Of a DNA stretch of 44,392 nucleotides, positions 25,746 to 31,097 are shown piece after piece (within the stretch, counting starts at the first letter, position 1; every line of letters begins with the position of its first letter). The notes below the pieces were generated by a model. That model searched no databases and was not told where the DNA came from. It saw only the letters and a list, made by a program, of their open reading frames with translations. The DNA lies in IMG/VR virus record IMGVR_UViG_2778261532_000008; one strand, given 5' to 3'. The stretch is from a virus. Lineage: Duplodnaviria > Heunggongvirae > Uroviricota > Caudoviricetes. The position numbers and the translations under genes are program-made.

Positions 25746-28664
25746 ATGAATGACGTTACAGTTGTCACATCGGTTACTTACCCATCACCCGAGTCGTTGG
25801 CTCTGGTGGCTGATGTGCAATACCACGAACCATATCTGTCAGCCGCGCTAAACCGAAAATTCAGGGGGATTGTTGACCCGGGATTTTATGCCGGTTTCTT
25901 ACCTAAGCCTGGCGGTGGGATGAACCTGTTAATCACCTCAGTGGATGGTGATAAAACCGCAGGCGCGGCGTCGGTGGATATTGGTGAATTCTACCAGGTA
26001 ACTATTCAGCAACGTAAGGATATTTCTCTTGCACTTAGTGCAGGCAAGAAATATGCAATTGTGCTGAAGGGAAGATACCTCCTTGGAGAAGATACCTATC
26101 AGGTGAATACCGCGTCACATATTCATGCGGCTGAATTTGTTGCCAGAACCTATACCGATTCATATCAGTTAGGAGATGGGGAGCTGCTTGTTTGTACGGT
26201 GAATATCCCTGCTGGTGTATCTGCCATTACCCAAGAGATGATTGATACATCCGAGCGTATCAACCGCACGATCGGCATTGATATTTCAGACTCTGTAACC
26301 AGTAGCAGAAGTGATGTTGCTGCAAGTTCGCTGGCAGTTAAAAAAGCTTACGATCTGGCGAAAAGTAAGTATACGGCGCAGGATGCAAGCACAACGCAAA
26401 AGGGATTAGTTCAGCTCAGTAGCGAAACTAACAGCGACAGCGAAACAATGGCGGCTACCCCTAAAGCCGTTAAGTCTGTAAAAGATCTTGCTGATACCAA
26501 AGCGCCAATAGAAAGCCCGAGTCTGACAGGAACGCCAACCGCGCCGACGGCAGCGCAAGGTACAAATAGCACGCAGATCGCAAATACAGCCTTTGTTAAG
26601 GCAGCTATAACGGCACTTATCAACGGTGCACCTGGCACACTGGATACGCTTAAAGAAATAGCTGCTGCGATCAATAACGACCCGAATTTCAGCACAACTA
26701 TCAACAATGCTCTGGCTCTTAAAGCTCCTTTAGCAAGTCCTGCATTAACGGGAATACCTACTGCGCCTACCGCTGCACAGGGTACGAATAACACGCAGAT
26801 TGCTACGACCGCTTATGTAAGAGCTGCCATATCCGCATTGGTTGGTTCATCACCAGAAGCTCTTGATACCCTGAATGAGCTTGCCGCAGCACTTGGTAAT
26901 GACCCGAACTTTGCGACAACAATGACAAATGCGCTGGCAGGCAAACAGCCTCTGGATGCAACTTTAACCGCGCTCGCTGGCCTTGCGACTGGTGCAAACA
27001 AACTGCCTTATTTCACCGGTAAGGATACGGTAGCGCAGACTGATTTAACGTCAGTCGGTCGCGATATTCTGGCTAAAACAAGCACACTGGCCGTTATCCA
27101 ATACCTTGGTTTAAGAGAACTCGGTACCAGCGGTGAAAAGATCCCCCTGTTGAGCACGGCTAACACATGGAGTGCACGCCAGACTTTCAACGGCGGGATC
27201 ACCGGGGCGCTGACAGGGAACGCCGATACCGCAACAAAATTGAAAACAGCCAGAAACATTAATGGCGTCAGGTTCGATGGTTCTGGTGACATTAATATCA
27301 ATACTCTGGTATCGCGCGGTCGCGTAACGGCCCTGGAGGCGAATGCACAGGGAACATCCGGGATTCAGCTGTATGAGGCATACAACAATGGCTACCCTTC
27401 CCCCTATGGCAATGTGCTTCACCTTAAAGGTGCCACCGCTGCTGGCGAAGGTGAGTTATTCATTGGCTGGAGTGGCACGAGCGGTGCCCATGCGCCCGTA
27501 CATATCCGTTCGCGGCGGGATACTGATTCTGCCAACTGGTCTGAATGGGCGCAGGTCTATACGTCAAAAGATTCAATTCCCGGCGTCAATGCCAAAGGGG
27601 ATCAGGATACCTCTGGTAATGCGGCTACAGCGACCAAGTTGCAGACAGCATGTACTATCAACGGTGTCTCGTTTGATGGTTCTAAAAATATTGAGCTAAC
27701 GGCTGAAAATTTAAATCTTGAGCGAACAGTAGAATTAGCCGCTGGGTCATTGCAGAAAAATCAGAACGGCGCGGATATTCCTGGAAAAGATACCTTCACT
27801 AAAAATATTGGTGCATGTCGCGCTTTTCACAGTTCTATTAGTACAGGTGCAGGGAACTGGACAACGGCACAATTGATTGAATGGCTGGATTCTCAAGGGG
27901 CATTCAATCACCCATACTGGATGTGCAAATGTTCATGGTCGTACGGCAATAATAAAATTATAACCGATACTGGCTGTGGAACTATTCATCTTGCAGGTTG
28001 CGTTATTGAGGTTATGGGTAATAAAGGTGCCATGACCATCCGTGTAACAACACCAAGCACTTCCAGCGGTGGCGGAATCACTAATGCTCAATTCACTTAT
28101 ATTAATCATGGTGATGCTTACGCTCCTGGCTGGCGACGAGACTACAACACGAAAAACCAGCAGCCTGCATTTGCTTTAGGGCAAACAGGACGCAGGGTCG
28201 CAAATGATAAAGCTGTTGGCTGGAACTGGAATAGCGGCGTTTATGATGCAGATATCAGTGGCGCATCGACATTAATCCTCCACTTTAATATGAATGCGGG
28301 GAGTTGCCCTGCTGTACAGTTCCGCGTGAATTACAGAAATGGCGGTATCTTTTATCGTTCAGCGCGTGATGGTTATGGCTTTGAAGCTAACTGGTCAGAG
28401 TTTTACACCACAACACGCAAACCCTCTGCGGGAGATGTTGGTGCATATACGCAGGCAGAATGTAACTCAAGGTTTATTACAGGTATTCGCCTTGGCGGTC
28501 TGTCATCTGTTCAGACATGGAATGGTCCTGGCTGGTCTGACAGGTCAGGTTATGTCGTTACTGGTTCAGTTAACGGAAACCGTGATGAATTAATTGATAC
28601 AACTCAGGCAAGGCCAATTCAGTATTGCATTAATGGAATGTGGTATAACGCGGGGAGTATTTAA
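25746..28664 (+). CDS. S: tail fibre protein S (constant part Sc plus currently joined variable part Sv)
   Basis: Repeated fibre motifs SP(S/A)LTGxPTAPTAAQGTNxTQIA(N/T)TA(F/Y)V; C-terminal portion lies inside the invertible segment; ATG 25746 has AAGGA Shine-Dalgarno. Confidence 0.85.
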   Translation: MNDVTVVTSVTYPSPESLALVADVQYHEPYLSAALNRKFRGIVDPGFYAGFLPKPGGGMNLLITSVDGDKTAGAASVDIGEFYQVTIQQRKDISLALSAGKKYAIVLKGRYLLGEDTYQVNTASHIHAAEFVARTYTDSYQLGDGELLVCTVNIPAGVSAITQEMIDTSERINRTIGIDISDSVTSSRSDVAASSLAVKKAYDLAKSKYTAQDASTTQKGLVQLSSETNSDSETMAATPKAVKSVKDLADTKAPIESPSLTGTPTAPTAAQGTNSTQIANTAFVKAAITALINGAPGTLDTLKEIAAAINNDPNFSTTINNALALKAPLASPALTGIPTAPTAAQGTNNTQIATTAYVRAAISALVGSSPEALDTLNELAAALGNDPNFATTMTNALAGKQPLDATLTALAGLATGANKLPYFTGKDTVAQTDLTSVGRDILAKTSTLAVIQYLGLRELGTSGEKIPLLSTANTWSARQTFNGGITGALTGNADTATKLKTARNINGVRFDGSGDININTLVSRGRVTALEANAQGTSGIQLYEAYNNGYPSPYGNVLHLKGATAAGEGELFIGWSGTSGAHAPVHIRSRRDTDSANWSEWAQVYTSKDSIPGVNAKGDQDTSGNAATATKLQTACTINGVSFDGSKNIELTAENLNLERTVELAAGSLQKNQNGADIPGKDTFTKNIGACRAFHSSISTGAGNWTTAQLIEWLDSQGAFNHPYWMCKCSWSYGNNKIITDTGCGTIHLAGCVIEVMGNKGAMTIRVTTPSTSSGGGITNAQFTYINHGDAYAPGWRRDYNTKNQQPAFALGQTGRRVANDKAVGWNWNSGVYDADISGASTLILHFNMNAGSCPAVQFRVNYRNGGIFYRSARDGYGFEANWSEFYTTTRKPSAGDVGAYTQAECNSRFITGIRLGGLSSVQTWNGPGWSDRSGYVVTGSVNGNRDELIDTTQARPIQYCINGMWYNAGSI
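27097..27122. promoter_or_regulatory. cix-like crossover site (left) for Cin invertase
   Basis: CCAATACCTTGGTTTAAGAGAA, near-palindromic around a central AA/TT; resembles hix/gix/cix 26-bp sites. Confidence 0.6.
27103..27252. repeat. left inverted repeat of the invertible C-segment (~150 bp, ~90% identical to 30941-31090)
   Basis: Direct comparison of the two stretches after reverse-complementing; encodes STANTWSARQTFNGGITGALTGNADTATKLKTAR in both S and Sv'. Confidence 0.8.
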
Positions 28665-28666
28665 TT

Positions 28667-29200
28667 ATGATGCACTTAAAAAATATTACTGCTGGCAACC
28701 CTAAAACAAAAGAGCAATACCAGCTAACGAAACGATTTAACATCAAATGGCTTTATACAGAGGATGGGAAGAACTGGTATGAGGAACAAAAGAACTTTCA
28801 GCCTGATACGTTGAAAATGGTCTATGACCACAACGACGTTATTATTTGTATTGAAAAGGATGTTTCAGCAATTAATCCAGAAGGCGCAAGCGTCGTTGAG
28901 GTTCCTGATATTACAGCAAATCGCCGGGCTGATATTTCGGGTAAATGGATGTTCAAAGATGGCGTAGTGATAAAGCGAACTTATACCGAGGAGGAACAGA
29001 GGCAGCAGGCAGAGAATGAAAAGCAAAGCCTGTTGCAACTTGTCAGGGATAAAACCCAGCTATGGGACTCACAGCTACGGCTGGGCATCATTTCCGACGA
29101 GAATAAACAAAAATTAACCGAGTGGATGCTCTATGCGCAGAAAGTCGAATCTACAGACACCTCCAGCCTGCCAGTAACGTTTCCAGAACAACCAGAATGA
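28667..29200 (+). CDS. U: tail fibre assembly chaperone U
   Basis: 177-aa ORF directly after S; N-terminal ~120 residues homologous to the convergent U' ORF. Confidence 0.8.
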   Translation: MMHLKNITAGNPKTKEQYQLTKRFNIKWLYTEDGKNWYEEQKNFQPDTLKMVYDHNDVIICIEKDVSAINPEGASVVEVPDITANRRADISGKWMFKDGVVIKRTYTEEEQRQQAENEKQSLLQLVRDKTQLWDSQLRLGIISDENKQKLTEWMLYAQKVESTDTSSLPVTFPEQPE

Positions 29201-31043: not shown

Positions 31044-31090
31044 CAGGGGGATCTTTTCACCGCTGGTACCGAGTTCTCTTAAACCAAGGT
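30941..31090. repeat. right inverted repeat of the invertible C-segment
   Basis: Reverse complement matches 27103-27252. Confidence 0.8.
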
Positions 31091-31097
31091 TTAGGAT
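31072..31097. promoter_or_regulatory. cix-like crossover site (right), abutting the cin stop codon
   Basis: TTCTCTTAAACCAAGGTTTAGGATTG; half-sites TTCTCTTAAACC and CAATCCTAAACC around central AA. Confidence 0.6.

Follow-up and report, generated by a model that had tools for sequence, protein, structure and literature searches.

The window, by which we mean the whole 44,392-nt stretch of Caudoviricetes virus DNA that was analysed (IMGVR_UViG_2778261532_000008), carries a tail-fibre gene, a second and silent fibre part facing it, a chaperone gene behind each of the two fibre tips and, beside them, the gene for a serine DNA invertase. Open reading frames and domain searches place these genes in the order and on the strands first described for them (S, U, U', Sv', cin). 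The features of the locus are as follows.

25244..25269, plus strand: late promoter LPs, upstream of R-S-U, which aligns with the annotated LPs of P7
25746-28664, plus strand: tail-fibre gene S, whole, 972 aa (open reading frame)
25746..27106, plus strand: Sc, constant N-terminal portion of S, reaching as far as the crossover dinucleotide (open reading frame; Pfam Phage_fiber_2 repeats)
27094..27119, no strand: cix inside S (cixR in the P1/P7 annotation), TTATCCAATACC TT GGTTTAAGAGAA, crossover at 27106/27107
27096..27281, no strand: outer inverted repeat, left arm, with its partner at 30912-31097 (186 nt, 89%); encodes LGLRELGTSGEKIPLLSTANTWSARQTFNGGITGALTGNADTATKLKTAR... and takes in the first fibre motif
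27107..31086, no strand: invertible C-segment, 3,980 bp, versus 4,256 bp in P1
27282..27578, plus strand: module M, about 276-297 nt, 92 aa (NTLVSRGRV...SKDSI), from gapped alignments of the arms and protein alignment
27579..27718, no strand: inner inverted repeat, left arm, with its partner at 30754-30893 (140 nt, 79%); second fibre motif, GNAATATKLQTA(C/R)TINGVSFDGSKNIELT
27719..28664, plus strand: D1, the tip now expressed, a receptor-binding region of the P1 Sv'-type/Mu S'-type (PDB 8JU3, E = 2.9e-195)
28667..29200, plus strand: U, the chaperone now expressed, homologue of P1 U' (Pfam Caudo_TAP, 2e-36)
29203..29224, no strand: terminator-like hairpin, bidirectional, between the convergent U and U'
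29229..29759, minus strand: U', the silent chaperone, homologue of P1 U (Pfam Caudo_TAP, 5.5e-37)
29760..30753, minus strand: D2, the silent tip, of the P1 Sv-type/Mu S-type (PDB 5YVQ, E = 1e-154; Pfam Gp34_trimer)
29760-31086, minus strand: Sv', whole open reading frame (silent fibre part)
30754..31099, minus strand: short arm, made up of the inner repeat, an 18-nt linker, the outer repeat and the cin-side cix, and lacking M (alignment)
31074..31099, no strand: cix beside cin (cixL in the P1/P7 annotation), overlapping the cin stop codon, crossover at 31086/31087
31091..31651, minus strand: cin, serine DNA invertase, 186 aa (Pfam Resolvase, 4e-51, and HTH_7, 1.9e-18)
31562..31633, minus strand: recombinational enhancer within the 5' part of cin, agreeing at 72/72 positions with the annotated P1 enhancer

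The constant part Sc is 94-97% identical to those of P1 and P7, and the LPs site upstream is a direct repeat of an LPdar-like site at 32074-32099. D1 is collinear with P1 S' and 99.9% identical to the tips of three plasmids, D2 is 82% identical to the P1 tip, and a Caudo_TAP chaperone gene stands directly after each of them. The original prediction had named the two cassettes Sv-U and U'-Sv', and their positions are right, but by homology the expressed cassette is P1 Sv'-U' (Mu S'-type) and the silent one P1 Sv-U, so that these labels are positional only. The closest phage matches to the window are RCS47 and P7, both with C-segment, cix and cin annotated; the match to P1 spans exactly the C-segment, and a Salmonella plasmid, with 97.8% identity, comes closest of all. 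In complete E. coli genomes, which were searched for a near-identical copy that would display the same element in both orientations, no match exceeded about 95.5% identity.

The Cin-driven switch

We are highly confident that the element is a phage-plasmid of the P1/P7 family (Punavirus) and that the region is its C-segment host-range switch, with tail-fibre tips exchanged by Cin. The feature is an ordinary one, already known, and involves no new mechanism. An invertible C-segment that swaps fibre tips beside cin had been predicted, and the prediction is borne out by an intact cin, by an enhancer and cix sites that match those of P1, and by an S frame that is open in both states, with 972 aa as it stands and 895 aa upon simulated inversion.

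Cin of the window is identical to P1 Cin at 185/186 residues, the sole change being E145K, and the region upstream of cin is identical to that of P1; the Gin structures 3UJ3 and 4M6F match the protein with E of about 1e-89. An inactivating change in cin had been named beforehand as an observation that would speak against a working switch, and comparison with P1 Cin revealed none. As lysine occupies the same position in Cin of pE6474.2 and in Mu Gin, E145K is, judging from these sequences, probably harmless. We consider it very unlikely that the switch is frozen by a non-functional cin or cix site: the window does hold the C-segment in a single orientation and Cin does carry its one substitution, but little or nothing sets the catalytic domain, the HTH, the enhancer, the promoter region and the two cix sites apart from those of P1, and Mu Gin, an active invertase, likewise has K145.

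The two 26-bp cix sites are inverted relative to each other, have a central TT each when read inward, and do not differ from the sites of P1, P7 and three plasmids; the site at 31074-31099 reads, as reverse complement, CAATCCTAAACC TT GGTTTAAGAGAA. They had been placed at 27097-27122 and 31072-31097, and the sites are real, but the coordinates were 2-3 nt off, and the two ranges were out of register by one base. When half-sites were scanned across the whole 44-kb window, both sites scored 19.0, the next best site 14.5 and the background 6.1 on average (sd 1.8), and no third cix-like site emerged. Relatives lend inversion indirect support: near-identical records of equal length hold the segment in opposite Cin orientations (CP056970 versus CP056963, 98,816 bp; CP055671/CP057283 versus CP057289, 85,551 bp), and among the P7-type records the short arm adjoins cin in five and Sc in four.

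By analogy, this copy is expected to invert as well. Cin, a small serine invertase, would pair the inverted cix sites and exchange strands at the central TT (27106/7 and 31086/7), assisted, if P1 is a guide, by an enhancer in the 5' end of cin to which Fis binds. The flip of 3,980 bp would join Sc in frame either to D1 and U, giving the 972-aa S, or to D2 and U', giving the 895-aa S, so that the receptor-binding tip and its cognate chaperone would be swapped together, and Sc would be transcribed from LPs whichever cassette is joined to it. In P1, S' is reported to target O-antigen-bearing Shigella and E. coli O3, and S the LPS core (10.1101/2022.07.24.501295; PMC13172314). The two states of the window may have host ranges akin to these, the P1 tips of the literature being related to its own and non-identical. 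P1-like phage-plasmids are widespread carriers of resistance genes, and knowledge of which fibre tip is expressed from this textbook Cin/C-segment switch aids host-range prediction as well as P1-based DNA delivery.

A repeat divided by module M

The flanking repeats had been described as imperfect, about 150 bp long and about 90% identical, and this agrees with the 186 nt at 89% obtained by alignment; their core (27103-27250 versus 31090-30943) extends over 148 nt at 96.6% and includes a 73-nt exact run. A nested pair had been proposed at 27612-27705 versus 30765-30860 with about 85% identity. The pair is real, but the partner of the left copy is 30767-30860 and the identity 78/94, or 83%. Both arms encode the shared motif as described, (S/T)GNAATATKLQTA(C/R)TINGVSFDGSKNIELT, in frame, and the single exact run of the inner repeat is a 34-bp core at 27669-27702. 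For comparison with chance, the 8-kb region was shuffled 10 times with its dinucleotides preserved, and the best inverted window of 90 nt then reached 45-50 matches.

The outer and inner blocks are 297 nt apart on one arm and 18 nt apart on the other, and what is a single repeat in P1 is split into two blocks here because one arm lacks the 92-aa module M; the blocks correspond to the two ends of the P1 repeat, the inner one to its distal end. The module, in which a Pfam search found no Pfam domain, is confined to one arm in the window and in P7, and P1 has it in both; the layout is accordingly the split-repeat one of P7 and not the continuous repeat of about 0.62 kb of the P1 type. On this reading the repeats, which Cin does not require, represent coding sequence that two paralogous cassettes share, and M is a shaft module flanked by copies of the fibre motif on a single arm. 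There is nothing out of the ordinary in repeats that are split and imperfect, since the annotated P7 reference is laid out in the same way; in other Din-type fibre switches imperfect repeats range from 36 to 508 bp (PMC4134206).

Exchange at the inner repeat

The short arm of the window is 98.3-98.8% identical to the D1-joined short arm of pCRE1540-3 (L003) and pE6474.2 (L004), and in 16 natural plasmids this short arm, at 98-99% identity, adjoins the other fibre tip. The occurrence of one short arm on either tip in different natural plasmids exemplifies the transfer of shaft modules from one alternative fibre to the other. The points at which sequence affinity switches lie inside the inner repeat, at 27665-27668 for pE6474.2 and at 30805-30859 for the window's own arm, and both junctions predicted from the inner repeat are present in natural plasmids at 99.5-99.7% identity. 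Other comparisons also speak for cassette exchange: L003 is collinear with P1 except for a patch of 71 nt versus 350 nt, L005 carries an alternative module, M', of 648 nt, and L007 is of the P1 type with a window-like D2.

Two simple histories were rejected. The short arm is not the product of a recent direct-repeat deletion in the arm that carries M' in L005, the nearest relative, because its distal part shares only about 80% identity with L005; the short arm is 98-99% identical to those of L003 and L004 instead. Nor is the window a simple inner-repeat inversion of L003 or L004, as U' and D2 are only 80-90% identical to theirs and L003 is itself a patch variant of P1.

As read from these alignments, modules have been exchanged at the inner-repeat motif over evolutionary time, which is a known theme, and exchange of a patch or cassette fits the pattern no worse than reciprocal inversion, and perhaps better. 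What lies between the outer block and the inner one would behave, in the family as a whole, as an exchangeable cassette, occupied by M, by the 648-nt M' or by none, and homologous recombination anchored on the two conserved blocks is the pathway that presumably moved it between arms and between elements. Older primary papers aside, arm-to-arm transfer of a short patch may be undescribed among P1-like plasmids. The original prediction that recombination between the inner repeats could generate chimeric fibres has indirect support in so far as natural junctions exist and switch points fall inside the inner repeat, but these are the marks of evolutionary exchange, which a patch explains equally well or better. 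Such chimeras would retain the receptor-binding tips and relocate only the 92-aa shaft module.

That the inner repeat is nothing but a protein motif conserved because selection acts on fibre structure, and plays no part in recombination, is quite unlikely. The motif is indeed a copy of a general fibre repeat, found also at the end of the outer repeat, it belongs to a protein that has Pfam Phage_fiber_2 repeats, and most of the inner-repeat codons differ synonymously between the arms, as in old paralogues. Selection on the protein sits poorly, however, with switch points of two lineages inside the inner repeat, with 11 consecutive codons that are identical in DNA immediately after 14 synonymous differences in 30 codons, and with one short arm linked to different tips in different plasmids; a constant co-segregation of arm and tip alleles is already contradicted by the present data.

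Were the inner repeats a second active switch, inverting by RecA-dependent recombination at a measurable rate in lysogens, they would give, together with Cin, four fibre forms, namely D1 or D2 each with or without M. We regard this as unlikely. The arms are in frame and the simulated products are therefore open, one of 879 aa and one of 988 aa, the latter being collinear with P1 S; L003 and L004 are collinear with the simulated inner-inverted window, and the 34-bp exact block and the natural junctions noted above also speak for such a switch. On the other hand, the repeat has just 140 nt at 79% with that lone exact run, and for RecA recombination in E. coli 34 bp is near the minimal efficient length, with mismatches lowering exchange further. 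No otherwise identical pair of plasmids differing by the inner inversion alone was found, L003 differs from P1 by patch replacement and not by inversion, U' and D2 are only 80-90% identical to those of L003 and L004, and one informative SNP, at 27668, conflicts with a simple reciprocal crossover. We likewise see only a slim chance that a mobile shaft cassette (M, M' or none) shuttles between the fibres in lysogens at an appreciable frequency, by inter-arm gene conversion or by RecA-dependent inversion at the 34-bp core; if it did, it would add a second, Cin-independent layer of variation and bring the fibre forms from two to four, with changes in length or geometry and none in the receptor-binding tip.

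It is extremely unlikely that Cin acts also at quasi-cix sites in the inner repeats, in the multi-site, shufflon-like manner of Min of p15B. A position homologous to Mu gix does lie at the distal edge of the inner repeat in both arms (27700-27725 and 30747-30772), and its short-arm copy matches gix at 14/26 positions, TACAGGAA included. Yet the ACC..GGT core is lost in both copies, they match cix at just 7/26 and 11/26 positions, neither ranks within the top 25 cix-like 26-mers of the window, and, measured from the centre of the gix-equivalent position, the observed switch points are 9-45 bp upstream. A multi-site shufflon was rejected, with two cix sites only and the Mu-gix-equivalent position at the inner-repeat edge decayed. 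The reading that we favour remains a two-state Cin switch whose arms have exchanged modules in the course of evolution.

Relation to known switches

P7 (AF503408; also RCS47) agrees with the window in gene order, in cix sites and in the split-repeat layout with about 300 nt extra in one arm, the long arm being on the S'-type tip as in the window. According to its GenBank annotation and to alignment of its arms, these form repeat blocks of 156 bp and 126 bp, split by the additional 300 nt or so in one arm, like those of the window. P7 is 93% identical to the window overall, 81% in the long arm and 90% in the short arm, and differs in that U is split into Ua and Ub in its record, whereas U of the window is intact.

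P1 (AF234172/3) agrees in Cin (185/186), enhancer (72/72) and cix (identical), and its S' is collinear with the S that the window expresses, at 972 aa each; the long arm is 99.5% identical to that of the window. In contrast to the window, where one arm is without M, P1 has M in both arms, and thereby a single repeat of 638 bp (98.1%) and a segment of 4,256 bp; the alternative S is 895 aa long in the window and 987 aa in P1.

A serine recombinase, two inverted 26-bp sites, an enhancer in cis and two in-frame tips with chaperones of their own place the window in the Din family. The G-segment of Mu, with Gin and gix, has homologous tips and chaperones (S' 8JU3, S 5YVQ) and a homologous invertase, and the crossover peptide is IQNLGLQE in Mu and IQYLGLRE in the window. 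The sites of Mu lie where the inner repeat of the window ends, whereas in the P1 family the active sites are found upstream of there by about 620 bp, and the position equivalent to that of Mu is decayed. Min of p15B and the shufflons share a Din-family invertase acting on tail-fibre segments and fibre diversity built from shared motifs, but have more than two crossover sites, whereas the window has only two. Modular tail-fibre evolution, as represented by the citation of Sandmeier (1994, Mol Microbiol 12:343) in PMC4134206, resembles the exchange described here in having joints in a conserved motif and modules that are gained, lost and swapped; it is a general pattern of evolution rather than any one defined system.

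Element identity and the Cin switch

The interval belongs to the tail-fibre operon in a phage-plasmid of the P1/P7 family; the feature is a C-segment of an already known type, that of P7, and its Cin system is intact. With a 6.1-kb query, the top phage matches were RCS47 and P7 (93-94% over 97%), and the P1 match covered exactly the invertible part of the window. The closest record of all was the Salmonella plasmid pSA20030575.2 (97.8%), and the complete E. coli genomes searched gave no match above about 95.5%. Homologous features are labelled Sc, Sv, U, U', Sv', cixL, cixR, cin and enhancer in the P7 and P1 GenBank records.

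Features of the tail-fibre interval (genes from the ORF list)
25244-25269: late promoter LPs, upstream of R (R-S-U)
25300-25734: R
25746 (true start)-28664: S, 972 aa
27094-27119: Sc-side cix site, 26 bp, central TT 27106/7
28667-29200: U
29203-29224: terminator-like hairpin between convergent U and U', GC-rich, T-runs on both strands
29229-29759, strand opposite to S/U: U'
29760-31086, same strand as U': promoterless fibre 3' segment
31074-31099: cin-side cix site, 26 bp, central TT 31086/7, overlapping the cin stop codon
31091-31651, same strand as U': recombinase gene cin, 186 aa

Head-to-head cassettes between cix-like sites next to cin, as originally predicted, were borne out by the ORF list, the cix sites and a simulated inversion. 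Both sites exist, although their predicted coordinates were off by 2-3 nt, and they share their sequence exactly with the sites of P1, P7 and the three plasmids compared. A half-site scan across the entire 44-kb window scored them at 19.0 (next best 14.5; background 6.1 ± 1.8) and revealed no third cix site. A check for an inactivating change found cin intact: the Resolvase and HTH_7 domains are present, solved Gin structures are matched at E about 1e-89, and 185 of 186 residues are identical to P1 Cin. The sole change, E145K, also occurs in the Cin of pE6474.2 and is the residue of Mu Gin at the aligned position; the 72-nt enhancer and upstream region are identical to P1. When the segment is inverted in silico at the central dinucleotides, S remains an open frame (972 aa at present, 895 aa inverted); each tip is followed by a Caudo_TAP chaperone gene. 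The hairpin is likely a bidirectional terminator at the middle of the invertible segment.

The expressed S, in which the constant N-terminal part (Sc) continues into the expressed tip (D1), has the C-terminal end ...RPIQYCINGMWYNAGSI and is collinear with P1 S' (972 aa each), while the silent tip on the other strand (D2) ends in ...RPIQKYINGTWYNVAQV, as in P1 S. Compared with PDB entries, the expressed tip hits 8JU3, a Mu S' construct (E = 2.9e-195), and the silent tip hits 5YVQ, Mu S (E = 1e-154), and the window orientation is therefore equivalent to P1 C(-). Hence the predicted labels Sv and Sv' hold as positions, but by homology the expressed tip is of the P1 S'/Mu S' type and the silent one of the P1 S/Mu S type. 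P1 S' reportedly mediates O-antigen-dependent transduction, with Shigella flexneri and E. coli O3 as recipients, and for P1 S, LPS outer-core sugars have been reported as the target, with E. coli K-12 within the host range (10.1101/2022.07.24.501295; PMC13172314).

Of note, LPs forms a 26-nt direct repeat (77%) with 32074-32099, the two corresponding to the P1/P7 late promoters LPs and LPdar, the latter upstream of lydA. The U chaperone is a single intact 177-aa ORF in the window and is annotated as Ua and Ub pieces in the P7 reference (L001, 4577-5110). The product of 22952-24385 is homologous to BplA, a baseplate protein of P7; RefSeq plasmid annotations call it 'bleomycin hydrolase' (WP_000047923.1), probably a propagated misannotation.

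Nested repeats and module M

Both predicted inverted-repeat pairs are real by alignment. In dinucleotide-shuffled versions of the 8-kb region, no 90-nt inverted window had more than 50 matches. The outer pair (27096-27281 vs 30912-31097; 186 nt, 89%) has a 148-nt core at 96.6%, including a 73-nt exact run; the inner pair (27579-27718 vs 30754-30893) spans 140 nt at 79%, with 83% identity between arms in the sub-range originally delimited. Switches of this class usually have their 26-bp crossover sites set in imperfect repeats, whose length varies widely, from 36 to 508 bp (PMC4134206).

In P1 the arms make a single 638-bp repeat (98.1%), whereas in the P7 reference, whose layout is exactly that of the window, they comprise 156 bp (94%) and 126 bp (89%), ~300 nt apart in one arm only. 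Protein alignment showed that both window arms hold two copies of the fibre motif GNA(D/A)TATKL...NG(V)xFDGSxxI, separated by a 92-aa module M (27282-27578) in the Sc-side, long arm and by just a 13-aa linker in the cin-side, short arm. As both arms carry both motif copies and only one carries M, the inner repeat is the distal end of the 0.62-kb repeat of P1, and the nested pair exists because one arm lacks this shaft module. The C-segment measures 3,980 bp in the window and 4,256 bp in P1, the 276-bp difference being M.

A different module, M' (7186-7840, ~648 nt, ~216 aa), occupies the D2-side arm of the window's nearest relative, the Salmonella plasmid record NZ_CP030183.1; it includes a third fibre-motif copy and corresponds to window 30936-30942, where the window has the short linker. 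We also observed an additional nested imperfect inverted repeat (28611-29013 vs 29410-29813; about 404 nt, 69%), to which the tips contribute their C-terminal ends and U and U' their 5' portions; it arises because U/U' and the S C-termini are paralogous. As a whole, the segment forms a degenerate palindrome, built from two paralogous cassettes.

The window element, a single sequence, represents one orientation state. Deposits of equal length from the same studies carry opposite C-segment orientations (CP056970 vs CP056963, 98,816 bp; CP055671/CP057283 vs CP057289, 85,551 bp), which is natural evidence of active Cin inversion in close relatives. Among P7-type records, the short arm adjoins cin in 5 and Sc in 4.

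Exchange at the inner repeat

The original prediction held that recombination between the inner repeats could generate chimeric fibres. Simulated inner-repeat recombination is in frame, giving an S of 988 aa, collinear with the 987-aa P1 S, and an S' of 879 aa; the tips stay the same, and only M changes its tip partner. The predicted junction sequences were built and searched in the plasmid collection PLSDB, where short arm-D1 was found as a single contiguous match in 16 plasmids (99.2-99.5%), adjoining cin in 10 and Sc in 6. Two of these, pCRE1540-3 and pE6474.2, run collinear with the inner-inverted window from the simulation, in opposite Cin orientations. For the long arm and the D2 allele of the window, the junction was matched at 99.7% in pJD053-144K, which is of P1 type and has a repeat of 623 bp.

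Plasmid records per junction (rough counts)
M-inner repeat-D1, contiguous: 109
M-inner repeat-D2, contiguous: 73
Short arm-D1: 16
Short arm-D2 (P7/window type): 9 (none shared with the short arm-D1 list)

Segment-by-segment comparison with relatives revealed a mosaic. The long arm, D1 and U of the window are at least 99.2% identical to each of pCRE1540-3, pE6474.2 and the Salmonella record; U' (100%) and D2 (97.8%) match the Salmonella record, as against only 90% and 80% for the two other plasmids; and the short arm matches theirs at 98.3-98.8%, that of P7 reaching only 89.9%. SNP phasing places a switch from short-arm to long-arm/D1 alleles on the short-arm side of pE6474.2 between 27665 and 27668, at the edge of a 34-bp exact block (27669-27702). 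The window's short arm is pCRE1540-3-like down to about 30860 and Salmonella-like from 30804, so that its joint lies within 30805-30859, inside the inner repeat. The repeat itself contains 11 consecutive DNA-identical codons just after 30 codons with 14 synonymous differences. By these switch points, the inner repeat has been a genuine joint of recombination in two or more lineages.

Reciprocal inversion is one reading of these junctions; one informative SNP, at 27668, is at odds with a simple reciprocal crossover, and pCRE1540-3 is collinear with P1 apart from a 71-nt vs 350-nt patch in the D1-side arm. The data fit a stretch from outer to inner repeat that would behave as a swappable cassette, a picture that suits them at least as well as reciprocal inversion. 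Such a cassette could move by gene conversion or double crossover, either arm-to-arm or, where two elements in opposite Cin orientation share a cell, from one to the other. Inner-repeat exchange stands as an evolutionary statement, with natural junctions and joints in the inner repeat, and as such agrees with the modular tail-fibre evolution already known (Sandmeier 1994, as cited in PMC4134206), but nothing supports a second active switch there. Given general homology requirements, any ongoing RecA-dependent inversion would be expected to be rare, because the exact block is only 34 bp in 140 nt at 79%.

In Mu, gix encodes IQNLGLQE; the homologous window peptides are AENLNLER (27700-27725) and VEDLNLQE (30747-30772), at the distal edge of the inner repeat, which therefore stops where the Mu G segment starts. 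The ACC..GGT core is gone from both positions, the short-arm copy retaining 14/26 matches to gix, TACAGGAA among them, and the switch points map 9-45 bp upstream of the decayed gix-like centre, which argues against Cin action there. The active cix site of the window encodes the same peptide motif as Mu gix (IQYLGLRE), about 620 bp upstream of the gix-equivalent position.
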